Source: Dehalococcoidia bacterium
GTDB taxonomy: Bacteria; Chloroflexota; Dehalococcoidia; Plut-88900
DNA length: 64,000 bases
Assembly: GCA_965197645.1 (NCBI GenBank)
Contig: OZ240219.1
Location: 1,696,001 to 1,760,000 of the forward strand
Direction: 5' to 3'
Positions 2,863-20,762 of the stretch are shown piece after piece. A program made the translations under genes and the position numbers. Numbering within the stretch: the first letter of the stretch is position 1; the number at the start of each line of letters is the position of its first letter. Under the pieces are notes generated by a model. That model did no database searches. It saw nothing but the letters and a program-made list of their open reading frames with translations, and had not been told where the DNA came from.

Positions 2863-3834
2863 CTACACCCGGCGACTCTCAGTCAAAATCTCCCTGAGCT
2901 GAGCGATGTCCAGGTTGCCGCCGCTGAGGACCAGCACCACCTTCTTGCCCCTTATCCGGCTCCTGATCTGCAAGGCTCCGGCCAGGGCCGCGGCCCCGGC
3001 TCCTTCAGCGAGAGAGTGGGCCTTCTCCAACAGCATGACTATCGCCGCCTTCATCTCCTCTTCGCTGACCTGAAGGAAATCGTCCAATAGGTCCCTCATT
3101 ATGCTCTGGGTCAGGTCGAAGGGTACCCGGGTGGCCAGCCCTTCGGCGAAGGTCTCCACCTTCGCCTCTACGTGCGTTCGATTCTTCCAGGACAGGTATG
3201 CCGCGGGCGCTTTCTCGGCCCCGACCCCTATGACCTGTATGGCGGGATTGATGCTCTTGGACACGATGGCGGTGCCGCACACTCCGCTTCCCCCTCCTAC
3301 CGGCACCAGAACGACGTCGACGTCCGGGAGGTCCTCGATGATCTCCAGGGCGTAGGTACCGACGCCTGCTATGAGGAGCGGTTCGTTGCCGCTGTGGATG
3401 TACCTGTAGTTGAACTCGGCGGTCAGGCGACCTACCTCTTCTCGGGCCTCGTCGAAGTCGGCGCCGTGGACCACGATCTCTGCACCCAGATTTTCCATGG
3501 CCTCGACCTTGCCCGGGTTGGCGCCTTCCGGCACCACGATGACGGACTTGGTTCCGAACAGCCGGCTGGCGTAAGCCACGGACTGACCATGGTTCCCCGT
3601 GGATGCCGAGATCACGCCCCTGGCTCTCTCGTCGTTGGAGAGCCTGGAGATCAGATTGATGCCGCCCCTGACTTTGAATGCGCCAATGGGTTGGTGGTTC
3701 TCGTGCTTCAGATAGGTCTCGGAGCCCAGGACCTGGCTGAGGCCCGGGTAGTGGATCAGGGGAGTGGGAGGTAGATAAGGGCTGATGACGTCACGCGCTG
3801 ACAAGACGTCTGCCAGTGTTGGGCGATGATCCAT
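2863..3834 (-). CDS. PLP-dependent threonine/serine dehydratase (fold type II, no ACT domain)
   Basis: GAFKVRG PLP lysine, STGNHG, PVGGGSG, LSGGN. Confidence 0.9.
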   Translation of the reverse strand: MDHRPTLADVLSARDVISPYLPPTPLIHYPGLSQVLGSETYLKHENHQPIGAFKVRGGINLISRLSNDERARGVISASTGNHGQSVAYASRLFGTKSVIVVPEGANPGKVEAMENLGAEIVVHGADFDEAREEVGRLTAEFNYRYIHSGNEPLLIAGVGTYALEIIEDLPDVDVVLVPVGGGSGVCGTAIVSKSINPAIQVIGVGAEKAPAAYLSWKNRTHVEAKVETFAEGLATRVPFDLTQSIMRDLLDDFLQVSEEEMKAAIVMLLEKAHSLAEGAGAAALAGALQIRSRIRGKKVVLVLSGGNLDIAQLREILTESRRV

Positions 3835-3952
3835 ATGTCGGGCTCAATGCCTCCTTGGAGGGGATTTGGCCCCATGATAAGAGCGGTCCCGTAGTGGTGC
3901 AATGCTTGATCCGGCGCTGGTTGCAACTTGCCTGTACCGAGTTGAGTTATTG

Positions 3953-3981
3953 TTGAAATGAGTACCGACGCAGTGTAACAT
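3953..3981 (+). promoter_or_regulatory. Putative sigma70 promoter for prkA-rplS-priA
   Basis: TTGAAA-17 nt-TAACAT, followed by strong RBS GGAGGAGG before ATG 4040. Confidence 0.45.
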
Positions 3982-4039
3982 CGAAGGTATGCCATCAGCT
4001 TCGTGGAAGGCTCGACGGAGGAGGAGTCAGGGGTTGTAA

Positions 4040-6109
4040 ATGGACCTGGACAAACTGCTGGAAGAGGCTAGACAGGACCAGGAGAAGCTCAGCTGGGAAG
4101 GTACCTTTGGCGACTATCTGGAGATGGTCATCAAGGACCCCGGATTGGCCAGGCTGTCCCACGCCCGGATCTACGACATGATAATGGGCGCCGGCGTGGA
4201 GACCAATGAGCTGGGCGAGCGCCAATACAAGCTCTTCCTGGATGACCTGTATGGCCTGGAGCGGCCTCTGGAGCGCATCGTTGACTACTTCAGCTCCGCC
4301 GCCAACCGCCTGGAGGTCCGCAAGCGGATACTCCTGCTCCTGGGTCCTCCCAGCACCGGCAAGTCCACCATCGTCAACATACTGAAGAAGGCCCTGGAAG
4401 AGTACACCAGGACCGAAGAAGGCGAGGTCTACTCCATCAAGGGCTGTCCCATGCAGGAGGAGCCTCTCCACCTGATACCGGACCGGCTTCGAGCACAGTT
4501 CGAGAAGGAGTACGGGGTGTATATCGAGGGCGATCTGTGTCCTCACTGCACCTACGTGCTTCGGGACCGATACCAGGGTAAAGTCAAAGAGGTGCCTGTG
4601 GAACGGATCGTGCTCAGCGAGCGGCAGGGTGTCGGCATCGGCACCTACGTAGCGACCGACCCGGAGTCCCAGGACATCACCCGTCTCGTCGGGTCTATAG
4701 ATTCGTCCTTCGTCGGGAAGGATAGGGTGGAGACGGCCGGCAAGACCTACCGATTGGACGGCGAGCTGAACGTGGCCAGCCGCGGCGTCATGGACTTCAT
4801 AGAGATGCTCAAGTGCAACGAGCTGTTCCTGACCACTCTGGTGACGGTGACCCAAGAGCAGACCATCAAGATGGGCAGGTTCGGCACCGTCTACGTGGAC
4901 GAAGCGATAGTGGCCCACAGCAACGAAGGCGACTATCGCGCCTTCGTTGAGAACCAGCACACCGAGGCGCTGCAAGACCGGATAGTGTTGGTAAAGATCC
5001 CCTATAACCTCAAGCTGAGTGAAGAGACCCGCATTTATCGGAAGCTGCTTCAGGGGACCGAGACCGACAAGGTCCACTTCGCTCCTCTCACCCTCAACGT
5101 GGCGAGCACCCTGGCGATCCTGTCCAGGCTGGACACCTCGAAGAAGAGCGGGATGTCCATCATGGACAAGCTGGCCCTGTACGATGGCCAGCACGTGCGA
5201 GGATTCAGCCGTAAGGACGCGATAGAGCTGCAGGACAAGTCCACGGACGAAGGCCTCACAGGCATCTCTCCCAGGTACGTGGTGAACCGGCTCTCGGCTT
5301 TGAGCTCCGATCCGGACCTGAAGTGCATCGATCCCATGACTGCTCTTCAGGCCCTGGCGGACGGGCTGGACCAGCACATACCTATCTACGAGCAGACCAT
5401 GGAGCCGGTGGACGGTCAACAACAGCAACCCCGGCGTTCGAGGGTTACGGGTCTTACTTCCAAGGAAGACTACTTGAAGGGCCTGCAGACCATATTCATC
5501 GAGGCCCGTGATGGGTACAGGGAGCTGGCGAAGAAGGAGTTTCGAAAGGCCTTCGTGGACTCCTTCGAGCACCAGGCTCGGAACACTTTCAATACCTACG
5601 TCAAGAACATCACGGCCTATGTGAACGACGACAAGATCATCGATGAAGGGTCCGGGCAAGAGCGGGAGTCGGACGATCGGTTCATGAGGCAGATCGAGGA
5701 CTCCGCTTCAATCCGAGGGCATAATCGCGATGCCTTTCGGAAGGAAGCGCTCGACCGCTTGAGCTACCTAAAGGAGAGGGGTCGGGAGATCGATTACACC
5801 AGCCATGATATCCTTAAGGACGGCATCGAGAGGCGACTGCTCCCGGACGGCCGCGAGATAGAGCAGGTACTGCACTCCGGCAGAATATCCGATGAGGAAC
5901 GAAGGGAAAAGCTTGAACAGGTCCGGAAGCGGTTGGTAGATCATTTCGGATACTGTCAAATCTGCTCTGCAAAGCTGGTAGACTACGTGGCATCGGATAC
6001 CAGCGATTCAAGAGAGCTATACAGGGGAAGGAGAGAACCGACAAACAGAGAACTTGAGCCGATAGGACAAAGGCGAGGCTTGTTCAGCTGGTTGTTGGGC
6101 GATAGATAG
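4040..6109 (+). CDS. prkA: PrkA/YeaG family AAA+ serine protein kinase
   Basis: Walker [42 protein letters not shown], GYCxxCS C-terminus. Confidence 0.85.
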
Positions 6110-6114
6110 AAACT

Positions 6115-6477
6115 ATGAGTCCTCTTATAAAAGTCGATGTAGCAGACATAGTCAAGGTGGAACCCAACCCAGACGTCCCCCGCATCGAGTCGGGGCAGAC
6201 GGTCAAGGTCCACTTCAAGGTCGTCGAGGGAGAGCGGGAGCGGGTCCAGGTGTTCCAGGGAACGGTCATCCGGGTGCGCAATGGCGGCCCGGACGCCAAC
6301 TTTACCGTTCGGCGCATCTCCCACGGAGTGGGCGTGGAGCGCACCTTCCTTCTACACTCCCCCAGACTTCAAAAGGTAGAGGTGGTCCGCCACGGCAGGG
6401 TCAGGCGGTCCCGGCTCTACTACCTGAGGCAACGGTCCGGCAAGGCCGCCCGCATCCGAGAGAAGCGCTTCAACTAG
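6115..6477 (+). CDS. rplS: 50S ribosomal protein L19
   Basis: [39 protein letters not shown]. Confidence 0.97.
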
Positions 6478-6548
6478 TGGCGCCCTTGGGAACGGACCTC
6501 TTTCCGTGCCCGGAGGCGCAAGCTCGGACCGGAAATGCTCGCTTGTAG

Positions 6549-9011
6549 ATGAGCTTCGCAGAGGTAGCAGTAGACGCCCCTTGGACGCAACAGAGGACAT
6601 TTAGCTACTCCGTTCCCAACGAGCTCTCCGTACAGGCAGCCCAATCGGTCTGGGTCCCCTTCGGACGGCGGGTCCTTCAGGGGATAGTTTACGAGATTGG
6701 CCCCACCTCCGCGGTCGAAGAGACCAAGGACGTAATCTCCGTAATCGATCCTTCTCCCCTTTTGTCGCAAGCACAGCTAAATCTGGCCCGCTGGATCTCA
6801 GGGCGCTATCTCACCTCCCTGTTTGACGCCACGGCCCTGATGCTTCCCGCTGGTTTTCGCAGGCGAATCCTCACCTTCTTCTCCATCGCTCCGGTCTGCC
6901 ATGACAAGCCTTCAAGCCCCGGTCAGAAACGGGTCTTCGATTACGTGCAACGCCGGGGCACGGTGGAGCTGGAATCCATGAAGAAGGGTCTTGGCGTCAA
7001 GGCGGTCAATGCGGCGGAAAGAATGGCCAAGAAAGGCATTCTAAATCGTGAATGGCGTTGGGCCAGGCCGAAAATAGGGCCCAAGTACGTCAATGCTGTA
7101 CGGCTGGCCATCGACAAAGACGAAGCTGCCATTCAGATGGAGGCGCTGAGGAAAAAGCGGGCTACCCGGCGATCGGCTCTTATCGGGGCCCTGGTAGACC
7201 ACGACGGGCCAATCTCATCCACCGAGCTGCGGGGCTTGGACATCGATCCCTCAGTGGCGAGAGCGCTGGAGGAGCAGGGGCTGGTAACCATCGAACGGGT
7301 CCGCGTGCACCGGGACCCGTTGGGATACAAGAGCTTCCAGCGATCTTCCCAGCCCCGGCTCACCCGACACCAGCAGGAAGCCTGGCAGACCGTATCCGAT
7401 TCCATGGACCGGGGTGAAGCGAGACCGTTCCTTCTATACGGGGTCACCGGCAGTGGAAAAACCGAAATATACCTCAGAGCCCTGGAAAAGGCTGTGGCCC
7501 TCGGTAAGCGGGGCCTGGTCCTCGTGCCGGAGATATCTCTCACGCCCCAGACCATCGACCGGTTCGGCTCCCGATTTCCGAACAGGGTTGCAGTGCTCCA
7601 CAGCCGGTTGTCCCTGGGGGAGCGGTTCGATGAGTGGTGGCGGATAAAAGAGGGGCAGTTCGACGTGGTGATAGGCTCGAGGAGCGCGGTCTTCGCCCCT
7701 CAGCCGGACCTGGGTCTGATTGTGCTCGACGAAGAGCATGACGCCGCATACAAGCAGGCCGACCCGGCGCCCCGGTATCACGCTCGAGAGGTGACATTGA
7801 AGCTGGCCCGGGAGACCGGCGCCACGGTCGTGTTGGGAAGCGCTACCCCGGACGTCGGCATCTACCACAGGGCTAGCCAGGGTGAGTTCCAGCTACTGGA
7901 GCTGCCCGAACGGATTATCGCCAACGGCCCCTCGCTCCGAGAGGACAACGGCTCTGCGCAGTACCAGGTGAAGGAGAAGCCGCAGCTTCCCCAGGTACAG
8001 GTAGTCGACATGAGGGCGGAGCTGCGAGAGGGCAACAGGAGTATCTTTAGTAGTGCCCTCACCGGGGCCATAGACTCCGCTCTGTCCAGCAGGGAACAGA
8101 TAATCCTGTTTATCAACCGCCGGGGGACCGCGGCTTTCATCCAGTGCCAGGACTGCGGCTACTCCTCCAAATGCAAGAGATGCGAGGTAAGTCTGACGTA
8201 CCACTCGTCCTGGGAACGGCTGGTGTGCCATCACTGCGGCTACAACACCACCAGGCCGAAGACCTGTCAGGAGTGTGGCAGCCAGCGGCTCGGCTATCTG
8301 GGTCTAGGGACGCAAGGGGTGGAGGAGGAGATGCTCAGAGCTTTTCCCAGCGCCAGGTTGCTCCGCTGGGACAGAGACGTCACTGGCGGCAAGCACTCCC
8401 ACGAGGAGATACTGCAGAAATTTCTTTCCCACGAGGCCGATGTACTGATAGGGACCCAGATGATAGCCAAGGGCCTGCACATGCCCCGGGTGACGCTGGT
8501 AGGGGTGATAAGCGCCGACGTCGGCATCAACCTGCCGGACTTTCGGGCGGGCGAGAGAGTATTCCAGGTATTGAATCAGGTGGCCGGGCGGGCCGGCCGC
8601 GGGCCTTTGGGGGGCAGCGTGATAGTCCAGACTTTCAACCCGCACCACTATGCCATCGAAGCGGCGGCCCACCACGACTACGCCGGGTTCTACAAGCAGG
8701 AGATGACCTATAGAAGGCATCACCATTACCCTCCCTTCAGCAGGCTCGCCAGGCTGGTCTATACCCACACAGGTATGGCCCAAACCCGTGAGGAGTCCCA
8801 GCGGATGGCCAAGGAGCTGAGACGAGAGGTGGAGGTCAAGGGGACTCCAAACACGGACGTCCTGGGCCCGGTGCCCTGCTACATACCCAGGGTTAGAGGC
8901 AGGCACAGGTGGCAGATTCTGGTCAGAACGTCCGAACCTGAAGTGCTCCTAAAAGATATCCCGTTGCCGGAGCGATGGGCAGTCGATATAGACCCGGCAA
9001 CCCTTCTTTGA
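6549..9011 (+). CDS. priA: Primosomal protein N' (replication restart helicase)
   Basis: GVTGSGKTE, DEEHD, GSATP, four CxxC Zn motifs, GTQMIAKG, QVAGRAGR. Confidence 0.96.
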   Translation: MSFAEVAVDAPWTQQRTFSYSVPNELSVQAAQSVWVPFGRRVLQGIVYEIGPTSAVEETKDVISVIDPSPLLSQAQLNLARWISGRYLTSLFDATALMLPAGFRRRILTFFSIAPVCHDKPSSPGQKRVFDYVQRRGTVELESMKKGLGVKAVNAAERMAKKGILNREWRWARPKIGPKYVNAVRLAIDKDEAAIQMEALRKKRATRRSALIGALVDHDGPISSTELRGLDIDPSVARALEEQGLVTIERVRVHRDPLGYKSFQRSSQPRLTRHQQEAWQTVSDSMDRGEARPFLLYGVTGSGKTEIYLRALEKAVALGKRGLVLVPEISLTPQTIDRFGSRFPNRVAVLHSRLSLGERFDEWWRIKEGQFDVVIGSRSAVFAPQPDLGLIVLDEEHDAAYKQADPAPRYHAREVTLKLARETGATVVLGSATPDVGIYHRASQGEFQLLELPERIIANGPSLREDNGSAQYQVKEKPQLPQVQVVDMRAELREGNRSIFSSALTGAIDSALSSREQIILFINRRGTAAFIQCQDCGYSSKCKRCEVSLTYHSSWERLVCHHCGYNTTRPKTCQECGSQRLGYLGLGTQGVEEEMLRAFPSARLLRWDRDVTGGKHSHEEILQKFLSHEADVLIGTQMIAKGLHMPRVTLVGVISADVGINLPDFRAGERVFQVLNQVAGRAGRGPLGGSVIVQTFNPHHYAIEAAAHHDYAGFYKQEMTYRRHHHYPPFSRLARLVYTHTGMAQTREESQRMAKELRREVEVKGTPNTDVLGPVPCYIPRVRGRHRWQILVRTSEPEVLLKDIPLPERWAVDIDPATLL

Positions 9012-9013
9012 GG

Positions 9014-9042
9014 TTTACAAGTTTTAGACCATTTCATAAAAT
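9014..9042 (+). promoter_or_regulatory. Putative sigma70 promoter for def-cca
   Basis: TTTACA-17 nt-TAAAAT in AT-rich gap; RBS GGAGG before TTG 9116. Confidence 0.55.
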
Positions 9043-9115
9043 GTAGCCCGATTCAATCCTGTGGTCGGCACGGCCTTAATATCTAGTCTAGAAAGCAAAC
9101 TGGTGGAGGCCTAAC

Positions 9116-9643
9116 TTGGCGGTTCGTCCCCTTAGAGTCGTGCCCGATCCGGTCCTTCGGCAGAAGGCCAAGAAGGTACGAAACATAGACGCCTCTATAC
9201 GCAGGCTGGTCGAGGATATGATCGATACGATGCGGGCCAACCATGGGGTTGGGCTGGCGGCGCCCCAGGTTGGCGTGTCCCTCAGGGTTATAGTAATCGA
9301 GATACCGGAGGAGCCGGTACTGACCATGGTCAATCCGGAAATAGTGAAAAGGTCCGGACTGCGGGATGTAACCGAGGGCTGTCTCAGCGTGCCCGGCTAT
9401 CGAGGCGAAATCAAGCGCGCCGAGACGATCACTGCCAAGGGACTGGGCCTTGACGGCAAAGTGGTACGGATCAAGGGCCAGGAGCTTCTCGCCCAGGCTC
9501 TGGAGCACGAAACTGGACATATTCAGGGCAACCTATACACTGACTTGCTGGAGAGCATGGACGATCTCTACAGGCTGGAGCTGGCAGAGGAATCGCCGAG
9601 GATCCATGCCGCCGATCCAGTATCCCACGGTACGGATAGTTGA
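9116..9643 (+). CDS. def: Peptide deformylase
   Basis: GVGLAAPQ, EGCLS, HETGH (variant of HExxH); TTG start. Confidence 0.93.
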   Translation: MAVRPLRVVPDPVLRQKAKKVRNIDASIRRLVEDMIDTMRANHGVGLAAPQVGVSLRVIVIEIPEEPVLTMVNPEIVKRSGLRDVTEGCLSVPGYRGEIKRAETITAKGLGLDGKVVRIKGQELLAQALEHETGHIQGNLYTDLLESMDDLYRLELAEESPRIHAADPVSHGTDS

Positions 9644-11130
9644 ACACTGAAACAGAGATAGATACCAACGCTGTCCCTTTCCTGGGGCAGCTGGCAGCAC
9701 ATATCCGAGACCACGCCGGCGAAACCTACCTGGTTGGCGGGTTCCTGCGGGACACTCTCCTGGGTCGATCGACCGGTGACATCGACCTGGCGGTTACGGG
9801 CCCCTTCGAGTCCCTGGCTGGGACCATCGCAGACTCCTTGAACGGTACCCTCGTAGTGCTGGGCAAAGAGGAGCGGGTTGCCCGGGTAGTCTTATCCACT
9901 GACGAAGTCCGCCAGATAGACATCACGCCCATCACCGAGGACATAGCCTCGGATCTGGCGCGCCGAGACTTCACCATAGATGCCCTGGCCGTCTCACTGG
10001 ATTACGCAAACGGCGCACCCTGCGTTGCCGACGTCATCGATCCATTCGGCGGGGTGAAGGACCTTCGAAAAGGGGTAGTCCAGGCAGTGGGTACGGAGGT
10101 CTTCCGAAACGATCCGGTGAGGATGATGAGGGCGGTCCGGCTGTCGGCCGAGCTCGGCTTCTCCATAGACCGGGACACTCGGACCCTCATCAGAAGAGAC
10201 TGCCAGCTGTTGAAGGGAGTACCGGCCGAACGGACAACAGCCGAGTTGTGTCTCATCCTCGCCTCGAACCGCACACACCAATCGCTTGGACTGATGGAGG
10301 ACCTGGGCCTGCTGCGACTGATCATACCGGAGCTGGATGAAAGCATAGGCGTAGAACAGCCGAAGGAACACTACTGGGAGGTCTACGAGCATTTGCTGGA
10401 AACGGTACGCGCCGTCGAGCAGGTCATGGGCGAGACCACCGAAGAGCCCGATGCGTTCATAGGTTCCCTGGACTGGACTGGCGAGTACCTTCATTACCTG
10501 AATGAAGAAATGGCGGGTCCCTGCTCCAGGCGGGGCCTTGCGAAACTGGCGGCGCTTCTACACGACGTGGCCAAACCCCGGACCAAGACCATCCAACCCG
10601 ACGGTAGGATGAGGTTCTTCGGCCACTCCCAAGTTGGAGCCGAAATGGTGGGCCCAATCATGAGGAGGTTGCGGTTCGGTACGCGGGAGACGAGGCACGT
10701 GGAAGCCATAGTACTCCACCATCTCCGGCCGGGCCTGATGAACAGCCCCGGAGAGCCACCCACGCCTAGGGCGATCTACAAGTTCTTCCGCGACGCCGGC
10801 CGCTCCGCCGTGGACACCGTTCTGGTCAACCTATCCGATTACAGGGCCACCCGCGGGCCGATGCTTACCTGGGATGAATGGACCAGATACACGGAAAACT
10901 GCAAGCGTATCCTATCCAAGGGTCTGGAACAGAAGGCCCCTCGCCCTAAGCCCCTGGTCACGGGACATGATCTGATGAAGACGCTGCGAATATCCGAGGG
11001 CCCGCTGGTGGGAAGGCTGCTCGAAGAAGTTAGGGAAGCCCTGGCTGCCGGAGAGATCGATACCCGGGAGCAGGCCCTGGAACTGGCCGGGAAAAAGGTT
11101 GGAGCCTCGGTATCTGAAAGTACCGATTGA
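9640..11130 (+). CDS. Class II tRNA nucleotidyltransferase with HD domain (probably CC-adding type)
   Basis: VGGFLRD..DIDL, DLARRDFT, DPxRxxR, LHDVAKP HD domain. Confidence 0.85.
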   Translation: MNTETEIDTNAVPFLGQLAAHIRDHAGETYLVGGFLRDTLLGRSTGDIDLAVTGPFESLAGTIADSLNGTLVVLGKEERVARVVLSTDEVRQIDITPITEDIASDLARRDFTIDALAVSLDYANGAPCVADVIDPFGGVKDLRKGVVQAVGTEVFRNDPVRMMRAVRLSAELGFSIDRDTRTLIRRDCQLLKGVPAERTTAELCLILASNRTHQSLGLMEDLGLLRLIIPELDESIGVEQPKEHYWEVYEHLLETVRAVEQVMGETTEEPDAFIGSLDWTGEYLHYLNEEMAGPCSRRGLAKLAALLHDVAKPRTKTIQPDGRMRFFGHSQVGAEMVGPIMRRLRFGTRETRHVEAIVLHHLRPGLMNSPGEPPTPRAIYKFFRDAGRSAVDTVLVNLSDYRATRGPMLTWDEWTRYTENCKRILSKGLEQKAPRPKPLVTGHDLMKTLRISEGPLVGRLLEEVREALAAGEIDTREQALELAGKKVGASVSESTD

Positions 11131-16473: not shown

Positions 16474-17727
16474 CTACTCGGGGGAAGCTGTGGTCTCGGA
16501 GATGAGGGCTTCCCCTTCCGAGATGAGCTCCCGTTTTCTCTGCTCGGACCAACCCCTGGAATCGGACATCGAGTCGACGTAGGCTTTGAGGGAGTCCAGC
16601 GGGGTCATCGACTCTACGGACTGATCGCCCAGCCTGACGGTGCGCTCCCTTTCCACCTCTCTGGATATGGATGCGACGAAGTGGGCGTCGGACAGGGCTC
16701 TGCGGATCTCCGCCTCGCGGATGCCGGCGTCCAGCTCTGAGGGGACCTTGATGCGGAGGCGGACTATGGCGTCGGCGATCGAGTGTCGCTGTACCTCCCG
16801 GAGTACGACAGCCGTCGGGTCCAGATCGTCGGGTTTGACGTCGATGTCGATGGTGACGAAACGCCTGGCCTTTACCTGGTGGAACTGGTAGGAGGTAACC
16901 CGCTGGCCCTGGGGCAACGACGGGTCTATATCGACTACGTAGAATCCCTTGTCGTCCTTCTCTTCGCCGAAGTCCACCCGCTGCAGGCTGCCGCAGTACA
17001 CGACGGGCGGCGATTCGTTCAGCACCTGCATGCGATGGATGTGGCCGAGGCCGACGTAATCGAAGGTGGGCTGTGAAACGGTGCTTCGGAGCAGGACGTG
17101 ATCGCTGCCGACCATCATGCTCCGCTCCGAGCCGAGGGTGGCTTCGGATATGGACACGTGGGCGGTGAGGATGGAGGGGATGGAGGCGTCGAGGGCCTGG
17201 GACTCCTTCAGCACGTGGGCGGTCAGGATGTCCTCGATGCGCCGGTTCATCTCGTCGAAGGTGAGATTCTTTGCGGTGTCTCTCGCCAGGAGGACGCTGC
17301 GTCGAGGCCAGGGGATGGCGACGATCTGGACGGGGCCGGAGCGGGTCTCTATTCGGGTTGTGCCGGCGGTCCCGGCTACTGTGACGTTGTCGATGGCCAG
17401 GGTATCGAATATCTCGATGGCGGTGGCCCGGGCGAGGGCATTGGGTAGATCGTGGTTTCCCACCAGGAGGAAGACCTTGATGCCCTCTCCCGCCAGGCGG
17501 CCGATGCGCTTGGCGAACTCTCGCTGCTGGGTCTGGTTGGGCTCTCTGCTCTTGTAGGCGTCCCCGGCGAAGAGGACCAGGTCCACGGAGCTTTCTATGG
17601 CGAAGTCCACCAGCTCGTCGAAGGCGGCGAGGAAGTCTCCCATGCGGGTGGAGAGGCCGGTGGCGGGATCGGTGCGGCCATAGTTCTCCACGCCGATGTG
17701 CAGGTCAGAGAAGTGGAGTATACGCAT
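16474..17727 (-). CDS. sbcD: SbcD/Mre11 family DNA repair nuclease
   Basis: SDLHIG, AGDAY, VGNHD, AH, LGHIH phosphoesterase motifs; GSLQRVDFGE. Confidence 0.92.
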   Translation of the reverse strand: MRILHFSDLHIGVENYGRTDPATGLSTRMGDFLAAFDELVDFAIESSVDLVLFAGDAYKSREPNQTQQREFAKRIGRLAGEGIKVFLLVGNHDLPNALARATAIEIFDTLAIDNVTVAGTAGTTRIETRSGPVQIVAIPWPRRSVLLARDTAKNLTFDEMNRRIEDILTAHVLKESQALDASIPSILTAHVSISEATLGSERSMMVGSDHVLLRSTVSQPTFDYVGLGHIHRMQVLNESPPVVYCGSLQRVDFGEEKDDKGFYVVDIDPSLPQGQRVTSYQFHQVKARRFVTIDIDVKPDDLDPTAVVLREVQRHSIADAIVRLRIKVPSELDAGIREAEIRRALSDAHFVASISREVERERTVRLGDQSVESMTPLDSLKAYVDSMSDSRGWSEQRKRELISEGEALISETTASPE

Positions 17728-17931
17728 TAGGGGTGGGGTTGGGTATTTTACCTAGGGTTTGCGCCGGATTGACGCCGAACTCACTCGTCTAGTGTGCTGC
17801 TCCCTATGGAGACCTCAATGATAACAAACGGACGAAAAGAACGCCGGCGTTTACTGAAGAAGACGTTCTCTTGGGTTAAGTCCCGAATGCTATAGGTATC
17901 GCGGCTATGCTACAATGACATTGATTATGGT

Positions 17932-18375
17932 CTAGAATGGCAAATCGTCTGCTACCATCACGGGATCGTCTGAATTGCTTTCCCAATCAGCCAGCGCCCA
18001 CATTCCTTGGCCAAGACTCACAAATCTGGCGTCAGAACTTAGGTGAGCACCTGTATTCTTGACGGGGTCTTCCCCGGGTACATTGATGCCATAGTCAAGC
18101 AAATTGTCGTATATCGCCTTATAGTGCAATGGGGTTTGAGCACACCCCAGTATCTCGAACATCGTATCGTGCAAATCTTCTGACCGCAGTTGTTGACCTG
18201 CGGTGGCTCCTTCCCACTGGGAGTAGTCAGCGAGCATACCTCGATAATTCTCAACTTTCTCAGCGATGTGGTCGTATGAGGCTTGTGCCTCCTTCAATTG
18301 CCTGTCGCGATCTCCCAACTCTGCCTCCAACTCTTTCAGGCGTTTCGTTACGTCGCGGATTACGATACTACTCAT
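17932..18375 (-). CDS. Coiled-coil + HARE-like winged-HTH protein with SSB-like C-terminal DDLPF tail (147 aa)
   Basis: RBS AGGAGGAGG before ATG 18375; heptad-rich N-terminus; EILxxAxxPLHYKxI...AHLSSDARF...GxGxWxLxxW; ends VADDLPF. Confidence 0.7.
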   Translation of the reverse strand: MSSIVIRDVTKRLKELEAELGDRDRQLKEAQASYDHIAEKVENYRGMLADYSQWEGATAGQQLRSEDLHDTMFEILGCAQTPLHYKAIYDNLLDYGINVPGEDPVKNTGAHLSSDARFVSLGQGMWALADWESNSDDPVMVADDLPF

Positions 18376-18430
18376 AAAATTCCTCCTCCTAGCCCTTGAC
18401 AACATGACCCTAGTGTGTTCAATGAATGTG

Positions 18431-18502
18431 TGGAGAGGACGGGTATCGAACCCGCATCACCCGACTCTAACTCGGGTATCTTCCCCATTAGAAGACCTCC
18501 CC
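18431..18502 (-). tRNA. Non-canonical tRNA/tRNA-like gene: Ala-type acceptor, anticodon UAG, no encoded CCA
   Basis: GGGGAGG/CCUCUCC-A acceptor, U8, D-loop AAUGGGGA, anticodon arm CCCGA-GUUAGAG-UCGGG, 4-nt variable loop, T-arm GCGGG-UUCGAUA-CCCGU. Confidence 0.75.
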
Positions 18503-18667
18503 ACGACGTGCATTCGGTAGGGTTTGCCCCCCGCCACCGGATCCCCGCAAGGGACCAGTGGCCAATGCCGAAGGTACGTGTGGCCCAGGTAGGGATTGCA
18601 CGTACAGCATTAATTGGTGTTGCAGCACCAGCTGATACTCCTGTGATCTCAGGCCCCTGCCTGGGCC
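18503..18667 (-). ncRNA. Putative structured non-coding RNA or leader upstream of the tRNA-like element
   Basis: GGCCCAGG-C-AGGG pairs CCCT-A-CCTGGGCC closing an 87-nt module; second 60-nt module GCATTGG...CCGAATGC with internal hairpins; starts at the predicted TSS. Confidence 0.5.
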
Positions 18668-18673
18668 ACATCC

Positions 18674-18703
18674 ATTGTAGGGCAGCGCATGATACGCCGT
18701 CAA
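18674..18703 (-). promoter_or_regulatory. Sigma70-type promoter for the ncRNA-tRNA-like-HTH unit
   Basis: TTGACG (18703-18698)-18 nt-TACAAT (18679-18674); +1 would fall about 18667. Confidence 0.65.
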
Positions 18704-18775
18704 TCGGAATATGAAGCAATTTTCCCCATGTAGTGTCCACCCGTCTCGTGCCTGCCGCAGAATGGCCATCGATAG

Positions 18776-19027
18776 TCAGTTATCAACCCGTACGATGGAG
18801 TGACCCATGGCCGGCCCCAACTTCGCTGGCAGGCCGTTCCGCCTACAATGAAGTCTGGCGAAGGCTGCCATCTTCCTGCGAGTCACCTCGAGGAATGTGT
18901 TTCCGTCCCATCCTCCAGCCCATTCCGTTGCACGTCCCATTCCGGCTAAGGCGAAAAGAAAGCTGTACACCGGCTCTGGTGGTCGGTTGAGGTACGAGAT
19001 TTTAACTACACCCACATCGAGTCCCAT
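18776..19027 (-). CDS. Small hypothetical protein, possibly 3'-truncated
   Basis: G-rich RBS before ATG; globular-looking N-terminus (MGLDVGVV..WAGGWDGNTFLE); C-terminus looks random. Confidence 0.4.
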   Translation of the reverse strand: MGLDVGVVKISYLNRPPEPVYSFLFALAGMGRATEWAGGWDGNTFLEVTRRKMAAFARLHCRRNGLPAKLGPAMGHSIVRVDN

Positions 19028-19099
19028 GCTGTTCCCCCCGTTGAATTTGGTCCAGCATTGTATCGGACCCGCGGCGATTTGAGAGGACCCTAACGGAAA

Positions 19100-19208
19100 C
19101 CCTCACCCCTGGCCCCTCTCCCTTAGCAAGGGAGAGGGGAATAAGAACAGGTGGGGGACACCCCCATACCCCCGTCAAAAGGGGCAAGGCCCCTTTGGAA
19201 TCCCCCCT
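19100..19208. repeat. REP-like palindromic elements
   Basis: CCCTCACCCC-TGG-CCCCTCTCCCTT-AGC-AAGGGAGAGGGG perfect hairpin, then GGGGACACCCCC...AAAGGGGC-AAG-GCCCCTTT-GGAATCCCC. Confidence 0.65.
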
Positions 19209-19286
19209 GTATCGACGGCTAGTTGGGAGAAATCAGGTGGGGAACCCCCGGCTCTCGTTTCGGGGTTGAGGAAAGGGCCGGTGGCC

Positions 19287-20612
19287 TCAGCTCTCTAGCT
19301 GGTTTCGCAGGGCGTCCGCCAACCCGTCTATACTCACCCGCTCCTGGGCCATGGTGTCCCGGTTGCGGACGGTGACCTGGTGGTCATCCAGGGAGTCGAA
19401 GTCCACGGTGACGCAGAGGGGCGTGCCGATCTCGTCCTGCCGGCGGTAGCGGCGGCCGATGCTCTGGGCATCGTCGTACTGGGCCCGGAAGTGGGAGCGC
19501 ACCTGGTTGAAGACCTCCCTCGCCTTGGGCAGGAGCTTTTCGTTGCGGCTCAGGGGCAGGACGGCCACCTGCACCGGGCAGAGGTCTTTGTGCAGCTTCA
19601 GCAGGACTCGGGTCTCATCGCGGACCATCTCCTCGTGGTAGGCGTCGATGATGAAGGCCAGGGCGGCCCTGTCCACGCCGGCGGCAGGCTCGATGACGTA
19701 GGGCAGGACGTGCTCCTTGGCATCGTTGTCGAAGTAGGTTAGCGAGCGGCCGCTGCTCTGGGAATGCTGCTTGAGATCGTAGTCGGTGCGGTTGGCGATG
19801 CCCTCGAGCTCGGACCAGCCCATGGGGAAGAGGTACTCGACGTCGGAGCAGGCCTTGGCGTAGTGGGCAAGCTCATCGGCCTCGTGGGGCCGGAGGCGCA
19901 GGTTTTCCTTTCGAATGCCCAGGTCAACGTACCAATCGAACCGCTCCTGAATCCAGTACTCGAGCCACTCGTCGTCGGCGCCGGGGTTGACGAAGAACTC
20001 CATCTCCATCTGCTCGAACTCCCGGGTACGGAAGGTGAAGTTGCCGGGAGTGATCTCGTTGCGAAAGGACTTGCCTATCTGGGCGATGCCGAAGGGGAGG
20101 CGCTTGCGGGTGGAGGTGAGGACGTTTTCGAAGTTGACGAAGATGCCCTGGGCGGTCTCCGGCCTGAGGTAGACGGTGGCGGCGTCCTCCTCGACGGGGC
20201 CCATGAAGGTCTTGAACATCAGATTGAACTGTCGAGGATCGGCCAGATCGCCCCCGCAGTCGGGGCAGGTGTCACCCTCGAGATCGTCGGAGCGAAAGCG
20301 GTGATGACAGACCCGGCACTCGACGAGGGGGTCAGAGAAGCTGTCCAGGTGCCCGCTGGCCTTCCAGACATCGGGATGGAGAAGGATGGCCGAATCGAGG
20401 CCGACGACGTCGTCCCTCCCGTGTACCATCGATCGCCACCACGCCTCCTTGACGTTGCGCTTGAGCTCGACGCCCAGGGGGCCGTAGTCCCATACGCTGC
20501 CGAGGCCGCCGTATATCTCGCTGTTCTGAAAGATCAGCCCCCGGCGCTTGCACAGGGACACGATCTTCTCCATCGTCACTACGTCCGAAGTTTGGGTCAC
20601 AGGGGTCTCCAT
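19287..20612 (-). CDS. glyQS: Glycine--tRNA ligase, alpha2 type
   Basis: [58 protein letters not shown]; start ATG 20612 or GTG 20600. Confidence 0.95.
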
Positions 20613-20762
20613 CGTGGTCGGTAGTCGGTAATGTACGGGTCTGACGCTTTTTCGAACGTTAACAATTTCGTCCAGGCATGTCAAAAGCGGATTTGAGTAG
20701 CGTCTTGACTGGGCAAGGCGCGATATGACAGACTAGGTCGTTGCTTCGGTAATCAGTCACAG

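Follow-up and report, generated by a model that had tools for sequence, protein, structure and literature searches.

The 64,000-nucleotide stretch of a Dehalococcoidia genome analysed here (the window; assembly GCA_965197645.1, contig OZ240219.1, positions 1,696,001 to 1,760,000) carries, between an sbcD-like gene and glyQS, a small islet with a transfer RNA (tRNA) gene whose acceptor identity and anticodon disagree and, directly behind it, a gene for a helix-turn-helix (HTH) protein. The closest described tRNA is the tRNA(UAG) of Ashbya gossypii mitochondria, which, according to the available part of PMC3874161, is charged by alanyl-tRNA synthetase (AlaRS) through the G3·U70 pair, so that CUU and CUA are read as alanine. 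The islet tRNA is likewise of class I and has the UAG anticodon and G3·U70. The Ashbya tRNA, however, belongs to a fixed mitochondrial code reassignment, whereas the islet tRNA is strain-specific and has a canonical tRNA-Leu(UAG) alongside; its charging and decoding are predicted from sequence. Because the canonical tRNA-Leu(UAG) coexists and the islet is strain-specific, competition or mistranslation would be expected rather than a changed code. Natural mistranslating tRNAs described in the consulted sections of PMC11415595 are tRNA-Ala(CAG) of the yeast CUG-Ala clade and tRNA-ProX of Streptomyces and Kitasatospora, and such tRNAs often bear unusual anticodon-loop nucleotides. As in these, acceptor identity and anticodon disagree in the islet tRNA; in its anticodon loop U33 is normal and the oddities are G32 and G38. 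In contrast to tRNA-ProX, which has proline identity and a dedicated ProRSx, the islet tRNA combines alanine identity with a leucine anticodon and has no such companion synthetase gene nearby. A bacterial Ala/Leu hybrid tRNA was found neither in these sections of PMC11415595 nor in the literature searched.

With phage tRNAs the islet tRNA shares its occurrence as a single tRNA amid protein genes on apparently foreign DNA and the lack of an encoded CCA, but no phage structural or integrase gene is left in the islet. In ordinary phage tRNAs identity and anticodon match. A further likeness exists to transfer-messenger RNA (tmRNA), which also has an alanine-type acceptor with G3·U70, a T arm and structured RNA before it; the islet tRNA differs from it by complete D and anticodon arms. 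A tmRNA or two-piece tmRNA was considered for the islet and rejected, as ARAGORN called no tmRNA there and the permuted-tmRNA model gave 17.7 bits (gathering score 47) over the T arm only. The tmRNA of the genome is encoded at C1:2680279-2680635.

For the HTH protein, the closest described proteins are the delta subunit of RNA polymerase (RpoE) and other HARE-HTH proteins, with which it appears to share the winged-helix fold and signature as well as an acidic C-terminal extension. It differs from delta by an added N-terminal helix of 57 residues, by a tail of only about 13 residues which ends in a tip of the type found in the binding protein for single-stranded DNA (SSB), and by its genomic context, a mobile islet. 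The C-terminal hexapeptide of SSB is described in the available portions of PMC5872125 and PMC7913777 as the conserved docking site for SSB partners. Like the tails of SSBs (DDDIPF in Escherichia coli), the tail of the islet protein is predicted to be disordered; in the islet protein, however, Pfam detected no oligonucleotide/oligosaccharide-binding (OB) fold, and it would be a possible mimic, not an SSB.

The islet is best explained as acquired cargo in an insertion hotspot, consisting of a hybrid-identity tRNA, which if expressed would most likely be charged by AlaRS, and an HTH protein with an SSB-like tail. The tRNA and the HTH gene are regarded as neighbours and not as an obligate pair. 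For this reading as a whole, a probability of about 0.55 is estimated.

A class-I tRNA with an alanine-type acceptor end and a UAG anticodon

The tRNA and the spacer behind it are located as follows.

18431-18502, minus strand: class-I tRNA, anticodon UAG, alanine-type acceptor end, CCA not encoded (ARAGORN, Rfam RF00005)
18376-18430, minus strand: spacer from the tRNA to the HTH gene, 55 nt, with the ribosome-binding box AGGAGGAGGA at 18390-18381 (sequence)

The original prediction, made from the DNA sequence without database searches, had described a tRNA-like cloverleaf at this place, and both programs call a tRNA. ARAGORN reported tRNA(tag) with a drawn cloverleaf, a length of 72 nt and a 4-nt variable loop, and the match to Rfam RF00005 reached 48.2 bits (gathering score 29) over model positions 1-71. 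The loop that presents the UAG anticodon is unambiguous; it has 7 nt and is closed by five perfect base pairs. Pairing is complete in the acceptor stem (G3·U70 apart), in the anticodon stem and in the T stem, of which one pair is G·U. The nucleotides for tertiary contacts are intact by our numbering (U8, A14, A15-U48, G18G19, A21, U33, A37, G53-C61 and the UUCGA T-loop).

The acceptor end is composed of G1-C72, G2-C71, G3·U70, G4-C69 and A73, and G20 was assigned by numbering the 8-nt D loop AAUGGGGA by eye. According to the consulted part of PMC9976931, the bacterial alanine identity set comprises A73, G2-C71, G3·U70, G4-C69 and G20, and G3·U70 transplanted alone turns other tRNAs into alanine acceptors. 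The islet tRNA contains all five elements of this set; an alanine anticodon (NGC) is not present. Only four of the 50 ARAGORN calls of the genome have G3·U70, three tRNA-Ala and the islet tRNA, and all four show the combination GGGG/CUCC-A.

Elsewhere in the genome, the host already encodes a canonical 85-nt tRNA-Leu(UAG), three tRNA-Ala (CGC, GGC, UGC) and the tmRNA, and the islet tRNA is therefore an extra gene. The five canonical tRNA-Leu of the host are class II tRNAs of 85-87 nt with GCCG or GCGG acceptor ends, while the islet tRNA lacks the long variable arm of this class. Compared to any host tRNA, at most 53 of 72 positions are identical. CCA is encoded in 47 of the 50 ARAGORN calls, and the islet tRNA is among the three exceptions, which fits a foreign origin. 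The other two calls without CCA, a Thr(GGU) of 95 nt (G000:C1:492888-492982) and a Leu(GAG) of 89 nt (904114-904202), had no Rfam tRNA match at E<=0.01 and are probably false calls or degenerate tRNA-like elements. The CCA-adding enzyme family is present in the genome; one of its two PolyA_pol/CCA-adding family genes is found at about 9724-10080 of the window (plus strand), approximately 8 kb from the tRNA.

The spacer between the tRNA and the HTH gene is exactly 55 nt long and includes the box AGGAGGAGGA, in agreement with the spacer of about 55 nt and the strong ribosome-binding site originally proposed, and no terminator was called between the two by the scan. Given this gap and the lack of a called terminator, co-transcription of both is plausible from the sequence. 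Such an arrangement of a tRNA followed by a gene is common for tRNAs embedded in operons.

An orthologue of the tRNA was not found in 40 relatives, nor was a copy of the leader or the tRNA in 400 genomes of the class. The species-genome collection and IMG/VR were searched with a pattern for class-I tRNAs with an alanine-type acceptor end and TTAG in the anticodon region. Of 30 loci in species genomes, ARAGORN called nine as tRNA(UAG), ten as tRNA-Ala(AGC), two with UUA and one with an odd loop, and eight were not called. Five of the nine UAG cases are located beside notable genes, namely an integrase gene (L044), Fic and insertion sequence (IS) genes (L053), a DNA methylase gene (L061), a gene for a CCA-adding enzyme (L058) and, in L048, an open reading frame (ORF) resembling an IS-type transposase and a HigA-like gene, both recognised by eye and the transposase-like ORF without a Pfam match. 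The other four (L033, L055, L037 and L046) belong to Peribacteria, Patescibacteria and Gracilibacteria (candidate phyla radiation), have an encoded CCA and are found amid housekeeping genes (pth, obg, ychF, purK); their anticodon register is doubtful, since the loop would place a C at position 37. One of the ten IMG/VR hits is a clear class-I tRNA(UAG), the only tRNA on a 64-kb viral contig, without CCA and with a score of 48 bits. It has the same 7-bp acceptor stem as the islet tRNA, which is weak evidence, since the pattern had fixed four of the seven pairs and we estimate about 0.6 coincidences per 40 hits.

A second pattern, in which the whole acceptor stem was fixed, gave 26 new loci with 12 ordinary tRNA-Ala, four tRNAs with Phe, Thr, Tyr or Glu anticodons, eight with odd loops and two that were not called. 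The nearest sequences overall are 71-nt tRNA-Ala(CGC) of Phycisphaerae with 58 of 72 positions identical, a value partly forced by the pattern. Ten loci in metagenome-assembled genomes (MAGs) and viral contigs (L116, L127, L113, L115, L135, L114, L138, L133, L049 and L054) combine G3·U70 and A73 with non-alanine anticodons (GAA, GGU, UUC, GUA, UUA) or 8-nt loops, written by ARAGORN as 'cata' and 'tatc'. Five tRNAs, the islet tRNA counted, have nearly the same 28-nt 3' half, and three viral records contain a single such tRNA each, with 46.8-48 bits. In Solirubrobacterales (L034, L040, L051, L057), a conserved element of 71-72 nt with a tRNA-like T arm was found which is not called by ARAGORN and whose 3' end pairs with positions 3-10 and not 1-7.

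A strain-specific insertion between glyQS and sbcD

The flanks of the islet and the features at its glyQS-proximal end are the following.

16474-17727, minus strand: SbcD-like metallophosphoesterase, flank (Pfam Metallophos, E 5e-14)
19287-20684, minus strand: single-chain class-II glycyl-tRNA synthetase (GlyRS, glyQS), flank (Pfam tRNA-synt_2b and HGTP_anticodon)
19085-19286, no strand assigned: repetitive extragenic palindromic (REP)-like repeats just downstream of glyQS (inverted repeats and dispersed matches)
18776-19027, minus strand: small ORF, 83 aa, 3'-truncated (family matches)
18822-18825, no strand assigned: left cargo junction, within the small ORF (similarity break)

The spacer between the start of the SbcD-like ORF and the stop of GlyRS corresponds exactly to 17728-19286 (1559 bp). 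Its GC content is 0.49-0.51 across 17750-18500 and 0.57-0.58 across 18500-19250, compared to 0.62-0.66 in the flanks, and the AT-richer islet of about 1.5 kb between sbcD and glyQS is thereby confirmed. The HTH gene and the small ORF have a GC content at third codon positions (GC3) of 0.55 and 0.60, compared to 0.84 and 0.86 in the flanking sbcD and glyQS. Because the codon usage of the cargo genes departs from that of the flanks, a foreign origin is indicated for them. On the minus strand, in the direction from glyQS to sbcD, REP-like palindromes, small ORF, promoter-like site, two palindromic modules, tRNA, spacer and HTH gene follow each other, and every element of the order originally listed is found at its place.

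The flanking genes are well conserved. The SbcD-like gene is located beside glyQS in nine family genomes, GlyRS has 72-78% identity to its counterparts in eight relatives, and all eight family genomes fetched have the PHP-domain gene, glyQS and sbcD in this order. The spacer between glyQS and sbcD is variable in these genomes; it measures about 70 bp in two (G006, G010), about 320 bp in two others (G004, G011), about 500 bp in three (G007, G008, G009) and 6.7 kb in G002. In G008 it holds a DUF4258 and DUF2283 pair (L026, 6976-7452), which is probably a toxin-antitoxin pair; by eye, the spacers of G004 and G011 keep only a DUF2283-like ORF. The island of G002 at the same site (L025, G002:C1:2594000-2604000, 2886-9553) comprises a YceI-like gene, an NYN fragment, a truncated homologue of the small ORF, a gene for a 666-aa DpdB/DndB-like protein and an N6_N4 DNA methylase gene, and resembles an island for DNA modification or defence. 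Between the islet DNA and the relatives, nothing is shared but the small ORF and the dispersed REP family.

The small ORF, proposed from the sequence alone, is a member of a real gene family, as seen from cluster representatives and relatives. It has 65% identity to the ORF at the same locus in G002 and 87% to the protein P0009. The family consists of stand-alone proteins with a length of about 95 aa (76-125 aa in the 19 cluster representatives matched at E<=1e-3); no match was obtained for the small ORF in Pfam, PHROG, NCBIfam or PADLOC. In full-length members the C-terminal motif W..LPW.GD..MLHL.W is conserved, and it is missing from the copies in the window and in G002. The protein alignment diverges past about residue 66, the DNA similarity with G002 runs from window position 19029 to 18822 and ends at query position 465, and contigs of the runs X5 and X6 (another study) match from 18825 upward only. 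Since the conserved motif is missing and the DNA similarity stops, the left junction of the cargo is placed inside the small ORF at about 18825. A resident small gene has lost its 3' end to the insert.

Next to glyQS, the REP-like hairpins of the original prediction were recovered as inverted repeats at 19113-19139 (12 of 12 bases) and 19175-19199. The stretch of about 19085-19215 (islet query 72-202) belongs to a dispersed family with dozens of matched sites in 22 of 40 related genomes, many per genome, and has a second copy in this genome (G000:C1:671984-672036).

The content of the 1559-bp spacer is a strain-specific insertion in a variable hotspot, and the islet is most likely horizontally acquired cargo from a phage or another mobile element. 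The fallback suggestion of a mobile-element remnant is supported by the hotspot, the foreign codons, the truncated resident gene and the relatives of the HTH protein in phage-like contigs. As stated originally, no integrase or transposase domain was detected by Pfam in any ORF scanned. Direct repeats of the att type or terminal inverted repeats of the insert were represented only by matches of 11-13 nt, which is chance size; the same applies to the sole repeat of the tRNA 3' end, a match of 13 nt (12/13) inside sbcD. Among 50,697 phage records, no DNA or protein similar to the islet was found. Among the contigs of four runs, the islet was recovered in one 1730-nt contig of run X1, which is probably the source sample. 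In run X5, from a different study, a low contig depth of 0.9-4.6 at >=80% likeness was observed across 17984-18271 and 18416-18703, which are the conserved part of the HTH gene and the tRNA/leader bins.

Between the junction and the tRNA, three features are found.

18703-18674, minus strand: sigma-70-like promoter match TTGACG-18-TACAAT (10 of 12 consensus positions)
18580-18669, minus strand: palindromic module 1, two internal hairpins enclosed by a stem of about 10-16 bp (fold)
18506-18579, minus strand: palindromic module 2, outer stem enclosing a 13-bp hairpin and a short hairpin (fold)

A sigma-70 promoter had been predicted here; a match is present and is the only one in 17600-19400, but shuffled sequence gives a mean of 0.9 matches. 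The structured RNA modules are also only partly confirmed. Strong palindromes exist, with an inverted repeat in module 1 (18579-18594 / 18655-18670) of 16 nt and 94% complementarity, and the minus strand of 18506-18669 folds with -82.1 kcal/mol (z = -4.23); the plus strand, however, reaches z = -6.45. Because the opposite strand folds even better, the palindromy is real and RNA-level structure is only putative. No T-box, other riboswitch or any other Rfam family was found in the leader at E<=1, the tRNA was the only Rfam match at gathering score in the 64-kb window, and no copies of the leader were detected elsewhere in the genome.

The modules might therefore act as DNA, either as recombination or end sequences of the insert or as operators for the putatively dimeric winged-helix protein, a tentative explanation that has to be taken seriously even if the odds are somewhat against it. 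It is in line with their start about 120 bp from the insertion junction, with the better folding of the plus strand, which argues against selection for RNA helices with G·U pairs on the minus strand, with the lack of an Rfam family and with the predicted dimeric DNA binder encoded next door. On the other hand, no matching repeat is located at the other end of the insert, where the candidates are of chance size, no other copy exists in the genome, and the position between promoter-like site and tRNA fits a pre-tRNA leader as well.

The HARE-HTH-like protein and its SSB-like tail

The HTH gene and its parts, together with a feature downstream, are listed below.

17932-18375, minus strand: 147-aa coiled-coil and HARE-HTH protein (Pfam, NCBIfam, structure model)
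18202-18372, minus strand: long N-terminal helix, residues 2-58 (AlphaFold model)
17974-18183, minus strand: HARE-type winged helix, residues 65-134 (AlphaFold model)
17935-17970, minus strand: predicted disordered acidic tail ending in DDLPF, residues 136-147 (AlphaFold model)
17835-17852, minus strand: weak terminator-like palindrome with U-rich run downstream of the HTH gene (by eye)

The palindrome at 17835-17852 was not called by the terminator scan, because fewer than 5 bp are left for its stem when room is made for a loop.

Pfam, NCBIfam and the structure model agree with a coiled-coil and winged-helix gene, as had been proposed. The match to PF05066 is just below the cut-off (22.9 versus 25.9 bits, E 1.1e-4, profile positions 4-71 of 71), and that to TIGR04567 (RNA polymerase delta) is also below it (27.1 versus 42 bits, E 3.5e-6). 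The AlphaFold model has a predicted local distance difference test (pLDDT) value of 80.7, and N-terminal domains of RNA polymerase delta are the top Foldseek matches with E 0.018 or weaker. Dimerisation is putative; the homodimer prediction gave a score of 0.54, with a control at 0.35.

The tail ...DDPVMVADDLPF is identical in 10 of 12 residues, including the terminal DDLPF, to the tip ...DDPVMQPDDLPF of the main SSB of the host (G000:C1:2509926-2510330). When the genome was searched in six frames with the last 22 residues, the SSB tip was the best non-self match (E 1.2e-4), followed by a match with E 0.43. At the DNA level, 27 of 39 positions are identical, so the tail is not a recent copy of SSB. 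A DDLPF or EDLPF tip is common to the three closest homologues (P0002-P0004), while 19 distant ones have basic tails. An SSB/OB fold (PF00436) was not found by Pfam in the HTH protein. Judged by its sequence, the tail may mimic the docking motif of SSB. The genome harbors four SSB-domain genes (G000:C1:2527-2826, 1959905-1960204, 2509926-2510237 and 3040989-3041288), one of them within a 525-aa frame, and they are not alike at the C-terminal tip, which is DDLPF in one, DDMPF in another and ends in ASPF(D) in two.

Homologues of the HTH protein are rare. Only seven are present among 5.8 billion clustered proteins, three of them with PF05066 on record, and peptide patterns retrieved none in the species genomes or IMG/VR. 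Two metagenome loci with relatives (L013, L014) are series of small genes that match PHROG families, and one of these genes is queuine-tRNA-ribosyltransferase-like. A profile search of the 400 genomes of the class yielded 24 with more distant helix-plus-HARE proteins, of which 19 loci were fetched; the neighbour scan at these loci covered 37 of 60 ORFs, leaving aside short, more distant or small cut ORFs at the locus ends. In four of the 19 loci (L068, L069, L072, L073), the homologue is followed by a gene for a GHKL ATPase (HATPase_c_3); at two (L065, L078) it is located beside an N6_N4 methylase gene and at one beside a HigB-like gene. The neighbours of the distant HARE-HTH proteins point to a recurring link to DNA modification or restriction.

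None of the 19 class loci has an upstream tRNA or Rfam match on the same strand; a single tRNA was seen there, a canonical tRNA-Ser encoded on the opposite strand at a distance of about 1 kb. Upstream tRNA or Rfam RNA is likewise absent from the only metagenome locus that was informative, having upstream sequence, and in L014 the HTH gene is at the contig edge and stands outside this count. The proposed check for a conserved cloverleaf upstream of HTH homologues is negative in these 20 loci, a set outside which the three closest homologues (P0002-P0004, 59-66% identity) stand. In the reverse direction, no relative of the HTH protein was found within 1.5 kb of 66 other tRNA loci with alanine-type acceptors or in four viral records. 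A tblastn match of the HTH protein in L048, near an Ala/UAG tRNA (E 7.5e-4), was rejected, as it lies antisense inside a 282-aa ORF that resembles an IS transposase by eye. Neither islet protein was matched by PADLOC, and Pfam found no toxin or antitoxin domain in them.

Proposed function, alternatives and implications

Direct support exists for the insertion, for the tRNA features read from the sequence, for the fold class to which the protein belongs and for the similarity of its tail, and a course of events in line with them can be proposed. A mobile or phage cargo would have landed in the hotspot between glyQS and sbcD and cut the 3' end of the resident small gene. The tRNA would be transcribed, perhaps from the promoter-like site together with a 165-nt palindromic leader, RNase P would cut its 5' end, and after trimming of the 3' end the CCA-adding enzyme of the host would add CCA. 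Charging by the host AlaRS would proceed through G3·U70, A73, G2-C71, G4-C69 and G20. With its UAG anticodon, the tRNA would read CUA and by wobble perhaps CUG or CUU, so that alanine would be put at leucine codons in competition with the canonical class-II tRNA-Leu(UAG) of the host. The long helix might dimerise the HTH protein, the HARE winged helix would bind DNA, and the flexible tail (DDPVM..DDLPF) would imitate the SSB tip of the host and could thereby recruit or titrate SSB-docking proteins.

Several findings weigh against this reading. The islet tRNA is a singleton, its weak D stem contains the mismatch U10·U25, G32 and G38 are unusual, and its Rfam score of 48.2 bits is to be compared to 63.9-73 bits in ten host class-I tRNAs sampled. 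It needs 3' processing and CCA addition, whereas every canonical host tRNA encodes CCA, and the search for the RNase Z family in the genome gave at best 72.7 bits (cut-off 293). The promoter match is what chance would give, folding of the leader is better on the opposite strand, the acceptor stem shared with the viral contig carries little weight, and a link of the protein to a tRNA may exist within the subfamily of P0002-P0004. Most of this would also be expected if the tRNA and the palindromes were the decaying remains of a mobile element, such as a silent phage tRNA, and the HTH gene alone were functional, if anything; the truncated small gene beside them, which indicates a damaged locus, fits as well. 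Such a relic is rather unlikely in our view, but it is a serious competitor of the preferred reading. Three of the four stems are perfectly paired (apart from G3·U70 and one G·U in the T stem), the tertiary contacts checked are intact, and survival of the complete five-element alanine set by drift is unlikely. Moreover, comparable viral tRNAs also reach no more than 47-48 bits, and a low score may thus characterise this class rather than indicate decay.

The amino acid is a further point against the alanine reading. In E. coli, the determinants for leucyl-tRNA synthetase (LeuRS) are A73, A15-U48, G18G19 and A20a, with the long arm and the anticodon being dispensable (PMC9976931, as given in its section 12). 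A73, A15-U48, G18G19 and the UAG anticodon are present in the islet tRNA, and A20a is absent. Since A73, A15-U48 and G18G19 are leucine determinants as well, the sequence leaves the amino acid unsettled, and some charging by LeuRS is possible. The tRNA might even be a structurally novel class-I tRNA-Leu(UAG) which supplements CUA for the imported AT-richer genes. CUA is the second-rarest leucine codon of the host (5% of the leucine codons). Rare host codons are the kind usually supplemented by phage tRNAs. Leucine charging as the main function is nevertheless improbable, as G3·U70 with A73, G2-C71 and G4-C69 constitutes the AlaRS set and G3·U70 alone can switch tRNAs, A20a is missing, all five canonical tRNA-Leu of the host are of class II with other acceptor ends, and the HTH gene itself contains only one CUA among 15 leucine codons.

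The weakest alternative, a single module in which the leader RNA and the tRNA-like element are transcribed together with the HTH gene and the RNA is bound by the protein or controls it (following the self-contained unit of the original prediction, a ribonucleoprotein, defence or type III-like toxin-antitoxin system), has in its favour the tight packing on one strand with a 55-nt gap, no called terminator and a strong ribosome-binding site, the low-GC, foreign signature of the whole block and the toxin-antitoxin-like and defence-like cargo of the hotspot in relatives, but is very improbable, given that upstream RNA is absent from all 19 class loci and the metagenome locus, that HTH homologues are absent near the 66 alanine-type tRNAs and in the four viral records, that PADLOC gave no match, that leader and tRNA have no relative in the 400 genomes, that HARE-HTH is a DNA-binding and not an RNA-binding fold, and that folding of the palindromes is no worse on the other strand.

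The preferred reading, acquired cargo with a hybrid-identity tRNA and an HTH protein with an SSB-like tail, can be extended in a more speculative direction, which we regard as unlikely but worth stating. The islet tRNA would then be a working bacterial Leu-to-Ala decoder and belong to an undescribed, scattered set of mobile or phage tRNAs in MAGs and viral contigs, with alanine acceptor ends combined with non-alanine anticodons (UAG, GAA, GGU, UUC, UUA) and 8-nt loops, and the protein would capture the SSB interactome. If this is true, such tRNAs could recode or sabotage host translation, or read the genes of the element differently, and the HTH protein would be a second device for host manipulation, a sequence-specific DNA binder with a counterfeit SSB tail. 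If the tRNA is a dead relic, the finding shrinks to an ordinary small genomic islet.

Natural tRNAs with a conflict between identity and anticodon are few (yeast CUG clades, Ashbya mitochondria, Streptomyces tRNA-ProX), and each of them informs on the drift of the genetic code. The pattern scans suggest that the islet tRNA has company. The winged-helix protein, whose end nearly copies the SSB tip of its host, is a candidate case for the hijack of the SSB docking hub by a mobile element. For mistranslation, whether tolerated or weaponised, a bacterial tRNA that is carried on mobile DNA, combines an alanine acceptor end with the UAG anticodon and coexists with a canonical tRNA-Leu(UAG) would amount to a natural experiment.

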